From positions 19,902,001 to 19,966,000 of the forward strand of contig OZ024766.1 in assembly GCA_964016885.1 (NCBI GenBank): a stretch of DNA of 64,000 nt. The letters run 5' to 3'. Every line of letters starts with the position of its first letter. Position 1 is the stretch's first letter. Of this stretch, positions 25,572-64,000 are shown one piece after another. The position numbers were made by a program, and so were the translations under genes. Below the pieces are notes generated by a model. That model was not told where the DNA came from and searched no databases. It worked only from the letters and a program-made list of their open reading frames with translations. The stretch is from Eledone cirrhosa. Its lineage: Eukaryota.

Positions 25572-26376
25572 TGACACCGGTAAGAGAGCTGCAACATTGT
25601 CAACGACACCAAGTACCTGCTGTCTTCATTATAACTTTAATTAATCTAATTATATCTTGTGTAACAATTATATATATATATATATACACAAGTTTAATTC
25701 CCCGACATCAGTCCTACACTGTCATATCTATTCTTACTTTACAATTGTGTCTACTAAGAGTTCCATTACAATCTGTAGTAGTAAAACTACTATTTCACCA
25801 GAACATCTGCTATCAGTCAATTATAGACAATATATATATTTTAGACCACATATCAACCCAATATATATATATTTCCTATCTAATCTGTAGCTAAAGACAT
25901 AAAGTCAGCCTCACCACTTCATTCTGACAAGATATCAATTTATGACTAAAGATGAAGAAGATACACCAACGTTAATGTCGTGAAATAAAGCTGATAACAT
26001 TGAAACTTCTAATTTGATAACAAAGAGATTATTTCTTTGGTTATTTAGTAACAACTAACAACACAACACATTGATTATATGTGAAGGAGGTAAGTTGACA
26101 ACGATTTACTTAATGTCTAGATTAATGTGTGTAAATAATATAATTATGTGACCCCTACAACGACCAGTAATTAACCAGATTCCACTGTTACATGTGATAT
26201 AAAATATATTGTTATGACTGTCTTTATTATTTAAATTACCTCCGTCTATTTAATTATGTGGTTCACTACCTTACATTATAAAATATAGTTTATATTTAGT
26301 TGTACCTTGTTGTTGTTGCAGGGAAGTTTTGTTCTTTTTAGTCTAAATCTATTTTGATTTAATTTACTTCATCTAC
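25572..26376 (+). promoter_or_regulatory. Right arm of the inverted duplication; putative non-coding first exon of the plus-strand ZNF genes (donor at 26090)
   Basis: Consensus donor gaaggag|gtaagt. Highly similar to the left arm. Confidence 0.55.
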
Positions 26377-26379
26377 ATC

Positions 26380-58899: not shown

Positions 58900-61800
58900 G
58901 GTAAATCATTCTCTGTATCAAGTAGTTTAACTAGACACAAATATACCCATATGGGTGAGAACCCATAACGAAAAAAATATCTCGTCTGAAAATGGTGAAT
59001 TAAACACAAATACATTCATATGAGAAGCCATGCCACTGTGCTATTCTCTTTCATTGCTGCATTAACTTCATGCAAACATATATATACTTGAGAAAAGCCA
59101 TATCACTAATATTTGTGGAAAATTGTTATCAATGATAGCTTGTTCAACTAGACACTAACATATACAGGAGAGGAACCATATCACTGTAATGTCTGCAGTA
59201 AATCATTGTCTAAATGTTGTGGCTTCACTACACACTAACATTTACAGGAGAGGAACTATATCACTGTGATGTCTGCAGTAAATCATTCTCTAAATGTTGT
59301 GGCTTCACTAGACACTAACATATACAGGAGAGGAACTATATCACTGTGATGTCTGTGGTAAATCATTTTCTTGTAAATATTACTTAATGCAACACAATCA
59401 GACAAGATAAAAACCATATCACTCACCCAAAATAGTGCCACCAATGTTAATATTTTGAATAAAACTGTTTTACTAAGAAATTCTTCTCCTTTCATTTTAT
59501 TTGTAGAAGTTGTAACCAAGACTTGTGCTGACAAATCTGTATCGTTCAGAATTTACATACGCTATATATATGTGAATGTATGTGTGTAGAAGTTTGTGTC
59601 CCCTTTTGTTTGTTGCATATGTAGTGGATAAATGTATTCTTTTGTGTATGAATGATAAAAAGAATAATGCCAGAATTGTGATGTTGACAATGTTTATTTT
59701 ACAATAACAATATTAACTTGTTGCTACATTGAATATCAAGTAATAAAAATTGTGACAGGAATTATCACTACATCAATTTGCTGACTAGCTACTTCGAGCT
59801 AGCGTGTATGTATGTAGCAATACAACGATACACGAGAAGTGATTCAACAGGAAGATGAAAGAATAGATAAAACCCAGAAGTAAACAGTATAATGAAACCT
59901 ATTGAGTGTGTGTGTATCCTTAGTATTTGTTATTCCTCTCAAGGACTGGTGCTTCGGTCTCTCTTGTTTGGTGGCGTAGTCTGTGGCCAAGAAGGTGAGA
60001 GCCAGTAAGGCCAGGAGAGAGAGATAGAGTAAAAGGTCAGTAGAAGTCTGTAGACCCCAAGAGGTCTGTAGAATGTGAATGTTTCATATCGTTATTCTCT
60101 TAAGGACTACTGCTTCGTGGTCTGGCTGCTGGATTCCCTTTGTACTTGTATTTATAATAACCCTATAGCTAGATGTGTATACAGGGTTGATTTATGAGTA
60201 GCCATGTGAGTTTCAGCTATCTTGAAGCTGGGGTCACAGGTCAAGTGGCATGTATGTTCATCATTGTTGTCTCTTGACAGGACAATGGTGGGAAACTCGC
60301 AACGATAGGTGGTCCCAGATGCAAGAACTTTTAGATTCGGTTTCGAATCTTTGCCAGGTAATTTATAGGAGAATTCCGTTACACATCTATTAATGACATA
60401 GATGGCAACTTAAAGAGTGTCACAGTACTGAAATATGCAGATGAAACCAAGCTGTCCCTTGAGATAAAAAGGACAGATCCTGAACACTATAGATCTGGAC
60501 ACAATGCAGCAATGGACCACGGACTGGCAACTCAAGCTGGCTGTGTACAAGTGTACGACCATGCATTTATCTATCTATTTAAAGCTGTAAATAGCTATGG
60601 TGCGGCCACACTTAGAGATTGCATCACCAGTCTGGCAGCCCTGTCTTGCTCAGAACATTGATCTGGAAATTGTTTAGAGACGTGCAACCAAGTGAATACG
60701 CTCCATCAACCATCTACCATACTCTGAATGCCTTGCCTCCCTGGGTATGGATACATTGAAGGTCCGACGTCTGGAACTTGCTACTTATTGCACCTGAGCA
60801 TCAGCCACATATAAAATCTACGTTCTTAGATAGCTTCCCTGTGTTCCCAGTACGTCTGTTATGTACCCATAGTTTGTATTTGGGACATAAAATGGAATTT
60901 CTACCTACTCCTTTCCTACACACTGAACATGGCCATTTCCCAGAGGGTACCTGTGCCCTATTTTCCTTCCTACATACTAGAACTTTAGTCTTAGACAAGT
61001 TAACTCTAAGGCCTTTTGATTCTAGGCCATGCTTCCATGTTTGGAATTTCTTATCTAGTTCAGCTGTTAGATCATCTGCGTATAGAAGTTCCCATGGGCA
61101 GCCAGTCTTAAACTCCTCTGTTTTAGCCTGAAGGGCAATAATAAATAGGAGGGGGCTAAGGACTGAACCTTGATGAACACCAACTTTTATACTAAATTCT
61201 TCACTGTATTCATTGCTAATTCTATATATATACACGTATTTATGTGTATATATATATATAATTACTACACCACATTCTTCGCCTAAGTATAATTTGTAAT
61301 GTTATTTACAAAACTAGGAATAAAATAATTCTTAAGATATTCACTGCGAACCTGTACTCTCTCTATATCTTTTTTGGACCTGGTGTGTATATATATATAT
61401 ATATACATATATACGTATATATTTTTTTATCTATTTCACATTTGTGCTATTTGTAATGTTATGTATACAACCAGGAATAAAATGATACTTCCCCTAATCC
61501 TTACCATTCACTGCGAGACCGTACTTGCTGTTCGGCCCTGGGATATATATATATATATATACATATATATATATATATATATATATATATATATATATAT
61601 ATATATATATATTTACTACAGCATATTATTCGTCTAAGTATAATTTGTAATGTTATTTATACAACCAGGAATAAAATAATTCTTACTCTAAACCTTACCA
61701 TTCACTGCGAAACTCTACTGTCTTTATTTCCTGTTCCTGCCCCACCTACTTTCGTTCATTCATTAATTTACTTCAAACTCAATCAATTCCTGTCTCTTTC

Positions 61801-64000
61801 TTCTATATTTTATATTTTCAAGGTATTTCAACAATTTTTATCTGTTTTACGTTTCTTTCATTAATTTATTCCGTTTTATATTTAAAATATTTCTGACTAA
61901 TTTTTCCCGTATTTTCTGTCTAAATATTTATATACTTTATATATATAAAGTATATATATATATATATATATATATATAAAGTATAAATATATGTGTATAT
62001 ATATATGTATTCATGTATATATGCATATATATATGTGTATATGTACTGTATATATACATACATACGTTATACATACTAGACAAGATAATACACCTTCACA
62101 TCTGATATAAGAATACGGATAGGCTATGTAGCCGGTAAAACCAAAAGGGGTGAAACACATATTGCTATAGTGTTTCACCAGCTCTTCCTCAATCATTCAT
62201 AGATGTGAGTGTATATAATAATTATTTTGTATAATGTATCTTTTTATAAATATATATGAGTAGATGTGTGTATAACTATGTACATGTGTATATAACGCAG
62301 TAGATGTGTGTATAACTCAGTAGATGTGTGTAACTCAGTAGATGTGTGTATAACTCAGTAGATGTGTGTATAACTCAGTAGATGTGTGTAACTCAGTAGA
62401 TGTGTGTATAACTCAGTAGATGTGTGTAACTCAGTAGATGTGTGTAACTCAGTAGATGTGTATAACTCTGTAGATGTGTGTGTAACTCAGTAGATGTGTG
62501 TGTAACTCAGTAGATGTGTGTGTAACTCAGTAGATGTGTGTGTAACTCAGTAGATGTGTGTGTAACTCTGTAGATGTGTATGTAACTCAGTAGATGTGTG
62601 TATAACTCTGTAGATGTGTGTGTAACTCTGTAGATGTGTGTGTGTAACTCAAATAATTGTCCCCCGCCCTCACTTTCGTCTCAAATAATCGTTCCCCACC
62701 CTCACTTTGGTCTCAAATAATTGTCCCCCACCCTCACTTTGGTCTCAAATAATTGTCCCCTACCCTCGCTTAGGTCTCAAATAATTGTCCCCCGCCCTCA
62801 CTTTGGTCTCAAATAATTGTCCCCCACCCTCACTTTGGTCTCAAATAATTGTCCCCTACCCTCGCTTAGGTCTCAAATAATTTTCCCCCACCCTCACTCA
62901 TTTAATTTTCAGATTTTTTACACCACCACCCCACTCTTGATTCACCCCACCCATTTAAAATAAATAGGATGGGTTGTGGTCTCATTATGTAAACTAAATG
63001 ACTAATTCTGGTTTTCTATCTCTGGTGAAATTTATATGTATATATATATATGTATAGATATATAAATATCTATGCATATGTATATCATCATCATCATCAT
63101 CATTATCACCGTTTTACGTCCGTTCTTCCACGCTAGCACGGGTCAGACGGTTTGTCCTGTTGTGGGCAGTGTCTGGTCGGCTGACCATGCCTTGCTCATA
63201 CAGGAACTCATTTGGCTTGATTTCTACAGCTGGATGCCCTTCCTAACACCAACCTCATTTACAGTGAGTGCTGGGTGCTTTTTCGTGGCGCCTACACGTC
63301 CACTTTACAGTGTGGGCTGGGTGCTTTTTTGCCGTGGCACCTCCACGACCACCTTGCGGTATATATATATAAATATTTATACATATGTATATATATATGT
63401 ATATATATGAGCTCTTAAGACCAGTAAAATAACCTCTCTAGTGCCACAAACAATACACCCAGTCCTTGCTGTAAAGTGGTTGATGAGAGGAAAGGCATCC
63501 TAACAGCAAAGAAAAAAAATAGCGCTAAAATTATGGAAAACCCTACGAATAAAAATTTCTACTAATTGTGTCTACAAGCCTAACACAAGTCATGTTAACG
63601 GGGTGCCTAGTGTAGACTTGTGTGAGAATCCTTTGACTGTTATCAAGCAGTTATAACACAGCACTTATCAAGTGCTGTTATCAAGCAGCTATAACACAGC
63701 ACTTTTCCCCTTCCAGGTAGAAAGAACTGTTACTCAAGGAACTGTCAAGTTACACATCTCAGGTCTCAGACAATTACCATGTTAGAATGTCATATAAGAA
63801 TGAAGTTCTTGGGTAAAGGCTATAGGGCAGACCTACCAAGAGTTAGAAGGATTTAGTTTATAGAGCATCTTGGAATACCACTGCTTACATTGGAGAGAAT
63901 AACTCTGGACAGGAAAGTTGATATCTACAGTTTATCAATATAGAAATATAAAATTTCCAATGTTAAATCTATCTCTGTTTCTAAAGTATTCTCTATTATC

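Follow-up and report, generated by a model that had tools for sequence, protein, structure and literature searches.

Behind a single predicted non-coding leader exon in the genome of Eledone cirrhosa stand 18 zinc-finger exons, which we read, with about an even chance of being right, as alternative last exons that are expressed one at a time through 3′ splicing and polyadenylation. The window, that is, the whole stretch of 64,000 nucleotides analysed here, contains the leader and exons A to D (Table 1), and the complete array of acceptor plus zinc-finger exons (A-R) spans ~137 kb downstream of the leader. A cleaner case is the sister array at C27:19.415-19.636 Mb, 290 kb away, where 27 exons follow one intact leader. 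As the leader is non-coding and each exon carries a complete frame, a choice among such exons would swap the whole protein and not only its end.

Anatomy and origin of the array

The preliminary description had outlined a row of five exons, which proved to be real, but too small, as 18 were counted. The acceptor motif was found again and all the exon starts given for A to D were confirmed, while the further exon suspected at the window end (E) begins just past it. That the duplicated units hold no copy of the leader was borne out by blastn, which found two leaders in the window plus 200 kb downstream (25572-26089 on the plus strand and 24950-24425 on the minus strand), and by a leader HMM built on 35 copies, which had no match after 26400. 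In the genome, the acceptor pattern has 295 matches and the donor pattern 241 exact ones (the first 100 places of each were listed), with none for either reversed-pattern control.

One leader per exon is the norm in this family: a control region at C27:16.4-16.6 Mb has 17 leaders and 19 exons, C18:0.02-0.17 Mb has four donors for five exons, and at C18:5.9-6.1 Mb about 10 acceptors alternate with leaders. This ordinary 1:1 ratio supports the role of the leader. The same genome also holds 1:2 leader-to-exon intermediates, as well as a C14 array of 13 exons around which a leader is missing for 150 kb. One exon, at C27:21.879 Mb, is oriented against its leader and has an intact frame of 565 aa.

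The repeat unit is made up of the last 4 kb of an ordinary family intron, the acceptor, the whole reading frame and the poly(A) signal, with one junction common to the units. In five ordinary loci the left part of the spacer is continuous intron, whereas in the arrays it is joined to the 3′ flank of an exon, as at the unit junction 36241/36242. Unit spacers differ by 0.3-3.4%, leaders are 1.6% apart and units 2.7-3.1%, and the first 650 bases of the window's predicted intron are 98% like those of the sister array's intron. Such an array could have begun with a single tandem duplication, its breakpoints lying in the intron and shortly after the poly(A) signal; unequal crossing-over would then have added copies and shuffled the finger units of 84 bases. 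In splicing, any of the near-identical acceptors would be open to the donor at 26089, and the message would end at the poly(A) signal of whichever exon was chosen. A mobile element carrying the gene was also considered, and no common outer ends were seen. The idea that the 5′ part of the spacer is an LTR with a promoter was dropped, since this part is continuous intron in ordinary genes and most of the scored matches were array copies, with five other loci also matched.

Table 1. Features of the window, with coordinates counted from its first letter.
Feature	Position	Strand	Details
Zinc-finger last exon of neighbour gene	19740..22114	-	B-type 5′ end; ATG 21727; 369 aa; 11-12 fingers
Leader exon of neighbour gene (ordinary, one leader and one exon)	24425..24950	-	4.0% distant from the plus-strand leader
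Upstream block of the minus-strand gene's leader	24950..25140	-	ATTGG and TATA-like motifs
Sequence in place of the conserved upstream block	25280..25571		25465-25567: dispersed-repeat fragment, up to 35 matches in fetched regions
Predicted non-coding leader exon of the zinc-finger family	25572..26089	+	Donor GAG/GTAAGT at its end; 5′ end cut
Predicted intron	26090..33336	+	Reverse-transcriptase fragments throughout; RVT_1 at 28068-28580 and 32128-32697
Last exon A	33337..36240	+	ATG 33686; 479 aa; 14-15 C2H2 fingers; AATAAA 36100
Spacer of unit B	36242..40461	+	3′ part of ordinary family intron; no leader
Last exon B	40462..43490	+	ATG 40849; 356 aa; AATAAA 43355
Last exon C	47823..52210	+	ATG 48210; 512 aa; AATAAA 52073
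Last exon D	56632..59600	+	ATG 57019; 626 aa; 21 fingers; AATAAA 59458
Intron end before exon E	63915..64000	+	Exon start 64026, outside the window; 13 more units to ~170,300 (continued coordinates)

The leader exon and its upstream block

The plus-strand leader is one copy of a multicopy family exon, and 25782-26000 is covered by an RNA-like contig of a paralogue. It contains four short upstream ORFs of 1-13 aa, and the leader together with the untranslated region of exon B codes for nothing beyond upstream ORFs of that size. Its end had been taken for the sole donor of the plus strand, which holds for the family donor at the exon end 26089, but not for donor-like 9-mers, as those in the spacer at 36637, 36678, 36848 and 37000 reach 8/9 consensus matches, equal to the leader's score.

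Most family leaders carry a conserved upstream block: it is found in 40 of the 46 that bear a donor and, in an alignment of 19 leader 5′ ends, in 18. It is present at the leader of the sister array, but absent from the window's plus-strand leader, which is cut approximately at the predicted start site, and from the one at C27:21.91 Mb. In its place lies, among other sequence, the repeat fragment of Table 1, which we take to be SINE-like. The block of the minus-strand gene, a promoter as far as we infer from its sequence, stands head-to-head with the plus leader, 430-620 bases apart. With the predicted promoter lost from the window's leader, transcription would come from this head-to-head promoter of the neighbour, or else the array would have lost its drive recently. 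The proposal of a single promoter with alternative splicing is partly supported: it fits the anatomy, the origin and a sister array of the same design, and is weakened by a leader that here lacks the conserved upstream block.

Two minor observations concern this region. A CCG/GTAAGA at 25579, a candidate end of a tiny first exon, is crossed by a paralogue contig of the RNA-like run X21, and the motif spacing there would leave ~8 bases for such an exon. A protein search with the 5′ neighbour gave two unnamed matches.

The last exons and selection on their fingers

Each exon from A to D has its own ATG, as had been described, and across the arrays all 41 scored non-first exons have an ATG and at least 9 in-frame fingers, with predicted proteins of 313-831 aa and 9-28 C2H2 fingers. 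The further claim of a full zinc-finger exon in every unit holds for A and nearly for D, whose stop codon falls inside its final finger. In B and C, by contrast, a frameshift cuts the reading short after 11/19 and 17/37 fingers, respectively. Exon A has two fingers with a changed ligand and a 5′ subtype different from that of B-R (78% alike). An AATAAA had been placed at about 36385; one is present at 36384 and retained in 38/42 units, but it lies within the intron-derived spacer, and the family-conserved signal is the one at 36100, retained in 42/42 units and common to the minus-strand gene and the C14 units. The zinc-finger exons match PF00096 and PF13465, and all the Pfam matches listed are of finger type; no BTB domain was found among the best 25 Pfam families for exons A, B and D. 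No effector domain was encountered either, the leader being non-coding and only ~30 residues preceding the first finger.

Evidence that these exons have been in use comes from the zinc ligands. In units B-Q of the window array, a ligand is broken in 2 of 262 translated fingers, with ~50 expected under neutrality, and in the sister array 3 of 414 have a changed one, with ~78 expected, both expectations being based on the 2.0% divergence of the untranslated regions. Of 30 possible ligand changes a single one has occurred, whereas 22 of 32 possible silent changes have (p=4e-8); in the clade expanded inside the window array the counts are 0/30 and 17/32, with no ligand change in 59 private steps where 9.1 were expected. 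Omega is 0.02 for ligands and 1.56 for contact residues (p=0.012), and the DNA-contact positions are more variable than silent sites. Untranslated fingers offer a thin control, with an omega of ~1.25 on 13 steps, yet with 3/30 against 10/32 (p=0.06). Fisher tests against these fingers were not used, since 13 of their 18 non-silent changes are breaks (5 stops and 8 frameshift junctions), which leaves five true non-silent changes of three kinds. The fingers are largely the array's own: five of 162 fingers are common to the window and sister arrays, and none is common to the window array and 10 own-leader genes.

The downstream exons are under purifying selection, and the reading of B-E as promoterless dead copies, left open by the preliminary description, is strongly disfavoured by it. 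What the ligand selection shows is expression during the history of the array, not expression today.

Alternative explanations

A first alternative, which we hold to be rather unlikely, gives each cassette a transcription unit of its own, with a promoter in the spacer and a message either spliced from a spacer donor or unspliced, so that the locus would be a plain tandem cluster with a new promoter. It would account more simply for the ligand conservation that persists in arrays with a cut or missing leader (the window, C27:21.9 Mb and C14), and it gains from the lack of any fall in exon integrity with distance from the leader, which weighs against alternative last exons, as a donor that takes the first of 17-26 equal acceptors to appear should use the near ones most. 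Donor-like sites do exist in the spacers, that at 36678 being retained in 41/42 units, and a 2.4-kb piece occurs in all 12 C14 spacers, although not upstream of the first C14 unit. Against spacer promoters, the spacer is ordinary intron in the 1:1 genes, and no piece of it is kept beyond chance (one 119-base piece is never deleted, P=0.21). The only pieces common to all 54 units on C27 and C14 are those near the acceptor and the poly(A) signal, and the unique spacer bins vary about evenly, with 0.11-0.31 alleles per site. The retention of the acceptor in 42/42 units also speaks against spacer promoters, but weakly, since chance alone predicts about one loss. A cassette exon at 40155-40250 was rejected because 4 of 12 C14 units and most of the 1:1 genes lack its donor.

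An unlikely second possibility is that the exons were once alternative last exons of this leader, that the window copy has recently become silent or weak, and that the selection is historical, while the sister array is live. The cut of the leader near its predicted start site fits such an orphaning, and so does exon integrity, as a natural stop is reached in 4/16 window exons against 18/25 in the sister array, with 8/13 C14 exons truncated. However, once breaks are scored as independent events, the two arrays have about as many (five in the window array and four in the sister array, one of them common to both), and the clade expanded inside the window array has kept its ligands throughout. The cut itself is undatable from the divergences of leaders and units given above.

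Still more doubtful is a scheme in which the ~240 non-coding leaders of the family would be pooled and the arrays with a cut or missing leader would function through a trans join or be driven backwards from the promoter of a neighbouring gene; each cell would then choose whole DNA-binding proteins from arrays of 13-27 cassettes. Trans-splicing in its strict form, with weak local promoters and a leader supplied in trans by any of those family leaders, is very unlikely in our view. It has a precedent in mod(mdg4) (PMC6237743, in excerpt), and the continued constraint and retained acceptors of leaderless and cut-leader arrays, together with the opposite-strand exon on C27, would suit it. But the leader adds no coding sequence, so that the exons need none to make a protein, RNA support is absent, and the leader of the opposite-strand exon could have been missed.

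Finally, the idea that the units are dead duplicates which gene conversion keeps tidy, or copies falsely duplicated in the assembly, is largely refuted and highly improbable. In its favour, 12/17 downstream exons of the window array carry a frameshift or early stop, the finger units are clearly shuffled and two pairs of exons have the same contact-residue string. Against it, most breaks cost an exon no more than its last 0-2 fingers, the spacers differ from one another, there are 14 different finger strings in 16 units, and gene conversion between silent copies would preserve ligand codons no better than the silent sites of the same fingers, which vary.

RNA-like data

X21 is an RNA-like run, not on record as RNA and represented by contigs only. 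A contig stops at a B-type acceptor with four loose letters, as a splice would give; such a stop lies at the acceptor of the minus-strand neighbour's last exon. Among the 15 listed of 1,926 joints, from a comparison in which the leader and exons B-R stood in separate stretches, none links 26089 to any exon. Contigs 17 and 18 are about equally close to units J, L and Q, to two sister units and to an ordinary C25 gene, and therefore cannot be assigned to the leaderless units. The X21 ratios are ~0.2 in finger bins, against 0.010-0.015 in leader bins, which are not clearly enriched; those of the spacer without its last 1.9 kb (0.006-0.02) are no evidence against a spacer exon.

Comparison with known systems

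Among known loci, Drosophila lola, with 20 isoforms of which 17 have a unique zinc-finger end (excerpts of 10.1101/132027), and mod(mdg4), with more than 30 trans-spliced isoforms (excerpts of PMC6237743 and PMC12692577), had been named as resembling this one. The likeness stands for the architecture, in which a common 5′ part precedes a series of variable 3′ exons that each bring an acceptor and a DNA-binding module; the octopus arrays have 18 and 27 such exons, each with its acceptor and ATG, and an AATAAA was found in all 42 scored units. It fails for the coding part: lola and mod(mdg4) have a BTB domain in their common exons, to which the variable exon adds one short motif, whereas here there is no common coding exon and no BTB domain, and each exon would encode a whole protein behind a non-coding leader. 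Moreover, the array copies are young, ~3% apart, and their joins are predicted, unlike those of the fly genes.

Separate complete frames behind a non-coding first exon recall, in anatomy only, promoter-sharing gene pairs such as PEG3/ZIM2 and CPNE1/RBM12 (PMC2568002, in excerpt). Those are pairs of unrelated frames, whereas the 18 and 27 frames described here are paralogous and would stem from tandem duplication of a last exon. The tandem C2H2 families KRAB-ZNF and FiNZ-ZNF (PMC10547256, in excerpt) and the cephalopod C2H2 expansion (PMC9068888 and PMC12513265, in excerpt) also have a first exon and a single long finger-array exon, are clustered and change their contact residues fast. The present arrays likewise have single-exon tandem C2H2 fingers with conserved ligands and fast contact residues, but no effector-domain exon was found in them, and those families are described as whole-gene duplicates.

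Expansions of C2H2 genes in cephalopods are treated as whole-gene duplications. The excerpted text of PMC9068888, which concerns protocadherins and not zinc fingers, states that cephalopods diversify by full gene duplication and not by splicing; PMC12513265 uses only the longest isoform per gene, and in its excerpted text the words "exon", "splicing" and "promoter" have no occurrence. Our own protein searches returned generic finger matches and one mis-named octopus family, by which isoforms in relatives are not fixed. If one leader does serve 18-27 complete proteins, splicing would set part of the C2H2 repertoire, the gene counts and annotations of zinc-finger clusters would be wrong, and the choice of exon could vary between cells; octopus ZNFs are predicted, in the excerpted part of PMC10547256, to bind and silence transposable elements. 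The birth of such a system would also be visible within one genome, in its breakpoint, its donor intron and its 1:2 intermediates. Should each unit have its own promoter instead, this would be an ordinary cluster with an unusual origin of its promoters. The exons are different enough for long reads to tell them apart.

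Architecture of the array

The array of tandem C2H2 zinc-finger last exons is real, bigger than first noted and under selection. When the window, which spans C27:19,902,001-19,966,000 of a 3.0-Gb genome, is extended downstream by 200 kb, 18 plus-strand exons (A to R), each with an acceptor and fingers, can be followed (Table). These 264 kb hold only two copies of the leader, the predicted non-coding first exon: the plus-strand leader and, head-to-head with it on the minus strand, the leader of a neighbouring one-exon gene. An HMM built from 35 leader copies gave zero matches downstream of 26400, so that the absence of leaders from the duplicated units, proposed in the preliminary description, is borne out; its four acceptors, the donor (26089/26090) and four ATGs also lie where it had placed them. 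The proposal of a full zinc-finger exon in every unit holds only in part, since B and C run into frameshifts after 11 of 19 and 17 of 37 readable fingers, respectively, and the stop of D falls within its last finger. The AATAAA near 36385, named there as lying downstream of the exon, gives way to another at 36100, which is the likelier poly(A) signal because it is kept in 42/42 units (against 38/42 for the signal at 36384) and homology among the family 3′ ends ceases near 36240.

Location of the leader and of the zinc-finger exon arrays (coordinates without a contig are those of the window, continued downstream)
Feature	Location	Strand	Content
Leader	25572-26089	plus	predicted non-coding first exon
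Window array	33337 to ~170,300	plus	exons A-R
Sister array	C27:19.415-19.636 Mb	minus	one intact leader, 27 zinc-finger exons
Small array	C27:21.87-21.91 Mb (21872000-21912500)	mostly minus	damaged leader, 5 exons
C14 array	C14:8.949-9.069 Mb (8949229-9068936)		13 tandem zinc-finger exons

The 3′ UTR at 35330-36000 and 19980-20470 holds an 80-base tandem repeat, out of frame, which seems to have arisen from the 84-base finger unit. Inside the intron, at 28068-30489, a 569-base fragment of a reverse-transcriptase element stands in three tandem copies. At 3-1001 there is an open frame of 332 aa, rich in Gly, Pro and Met, with two homologues found and nothing from Pfam; its end presumably resembles the C-terminus of a KAT6 acetyltransferase.

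Leader family and related arrays

Exact genome matches number 241 for the donor and 295 for the acceptor (positions being known for the first 100 of each pattern) and 0 for reversed-pattern controls, so both leader and acceptor are multicopy. In three control regions leaders and exons alternate nearly 1:1: C27:16.4-16.6 Mb has 17 leaders and 19 exons, C18:0.02-0.17 Mb has 4 donors and 5 exons, and C18:5.9-6.1 Mb has ~10 acceptors; the two regions of 200 kb include three 1:2 cases in all. It is chiefly this pairing that supports the leader as a first exon. One-to-many arrays occur repeatedly (Table); they and the control regions were picked for an array-like or control look rather than as a census.

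The sister array, on the same contig (C27) as the window, is the best test site for a one-leader model: all 27 exons have an ATG and at least 312 aa. It also contains a higher-order duplication of ~52 kb. The leader of the small array is interrupted near its 5′ end and its first exon is broken; three minus-strand exons are intact, as is one on the opposite strand. In the C14 array, 8/13 frames are truncated, and no family leader was found in 150 kb upstream (including one 200-base gap).

Three identical B-type acceptor fragments (C27:13533121, 13787788 and 14904995) have neither a leader within 19 kb upstream nor a normal 3′ end. Ordinary one-leader genes at C18:5.9-6.1 Mb and C8:32.0-32.07 Mb are often broken, more than array exons, and 7/12 scored lack an in-frame finger. 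At C4:83.14-83.30 Mb, the 5′ part of the spacer occurs in four copies spaced 40-60 kb.

Origin of the repeat unit

The left end of the spacer continues as ordinary intron sequence at five 1:1 loci; in the arrays, as at three further loci, it abuts the 3′ flank of the exon. Since its right part, in turn, matches the intron end of ordinary family genes, the unit corresponds to the 3′ part of an intron plus the last exon, a structure that tandem duplication with breaks in the intron and behind the poly(A) signal would produce. A tree of 42 units and two outside rows, built on 3,060 spacer and UTR columns, is star-like. Mean distances are 2.7% among window units, 3.0% among sister units and 3.1% between the two arrays, and window units C-M (n=11) form a single clade (local support 0.97). 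From this tree, the window and sister arrays have a common ancestor; the C14 array has its own spacer and is a separate amplification.

Selection on the downstream exons

Finger statistics cover window units B-Q (16) and 25 sister units, leaving aside R, the first exon of each array and the divergent exon that ends the sister array; stops, absent from the in-frame class by definition, are not used as evidence. Against a neutral expectation at 2.0% 5′-UTR divergence, a Cys/His ligand is changed in 2/262 in-frame fingers of the window array (~50 expected) and 3/414 of the sister array (~78 expected). In the C14 array 3/215 fingers have a changed ligand, with ~23 expected. Counts of possible changes, which finger shuffling does not affect, give 1/30 ligand versus 22/32 silent changes seen in the window array (p=4e-8), 0/30 versus 17/32 in clade C-M, and 2/30 versus 16/32 in the C14 array; a thin neutral control gives omega ~1.25 over 13 steps, and 3/30 versus 10/32 (p=0.06). 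Among private finger haplotypes, omega is 0.02 for ligands, 1.56 for contact residues (p=0.012) and 0.68 for other residues, a mild constraint only. There are 14 distinct contact-residue strings in 16 window units and 20 in 25 sister units. The fingers are not imports from the functional genes sampled: of 162, none recurs in the 10 own-leader genes compared, which represent a small share of the family. These patterns speak strongly for translation of the exons during array growth, though not for expression today; dead copies or an artefact would be a most improbable account.

Predicted promoter region and RNA-like contigs

A repeat fragment abuts the start of the plus leader, which is missing the upstream block of ~190 bases kept by 18/19 aligned leaders and 40/46 donor-bearing leaders. 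The block, which we infer to be a promoter, bears ATTGG and a TATA-like motif ~30 bases before the equivalent of 25572. The neighbour's block, on the other strand 430-620 bases from the plus leader, could drive transcription both ways. Between the two leaders, a short palindrome (25380-25420) may be a scar left when a rearrangement cut the plus leader.

The run X21, available as contigs, behaves like RNA: relative to a DNA run its depth, a poor measure, reaches ~0.2 in finger bins and 0.005-0.02 in intron and spacer bins, and drops downstream of 36080. One contig (21958-22116) halts at a B-type acceptor with 4 loose letters, and another spans the leader at 25782-26000. A further one spans a paralogue's upstream block, in which case some starts would lie further upstream. 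The leader-to-exon joint is absent among the 15 of 1,926 joints listed, and none of these contigs is assignable to a leaderless unit.

Proposed expression of the exons

We give an even chance to alternative last exons served by one non-coding leader. An upstream leader is favoured by the spacer being former intron, by the lack of spacer pieces conserved beyond chance (for one of 119 bases, placing 40 gaps at random gives P=0.21), and by the sharing among all 54 C27 and C14 units of acceptor- and poly(A)-near pieces only. Exon integrity that stays flat with distance from the leader and donor-like sites inside the spacers speak against the upstream leader, as do a window leader that begins at a repeat junction without its block and a C14 array that is constrained though leader-free in 150 kb upstream. 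Of the other accounts, promoters belonging to each unit are, on balance, unlikely, recent orphaning of the array is rather improbable, and trans-splicing is less probable still.

The likeness to lola (10.1101/132027) and mod(mdg4) (PMC6237743), suggested in the preliminary description, stands for the layout and not for membership: both have a common coding exon with a BTB domain, and the window array has no common coding exon and, among the best 25 Pfam families for exons A, B and D, no BTB domain. A search of a mostly open-access set of papers showed no report of such a design for cephalopod zinc-finger genes. Because complete frames follow one common non-coding exon, the array comes closer to promoter-sharing pairs such as PEG3/ZIM2 (PMC2568002), although these are pairs and the window array comprises a far larger number of frames.
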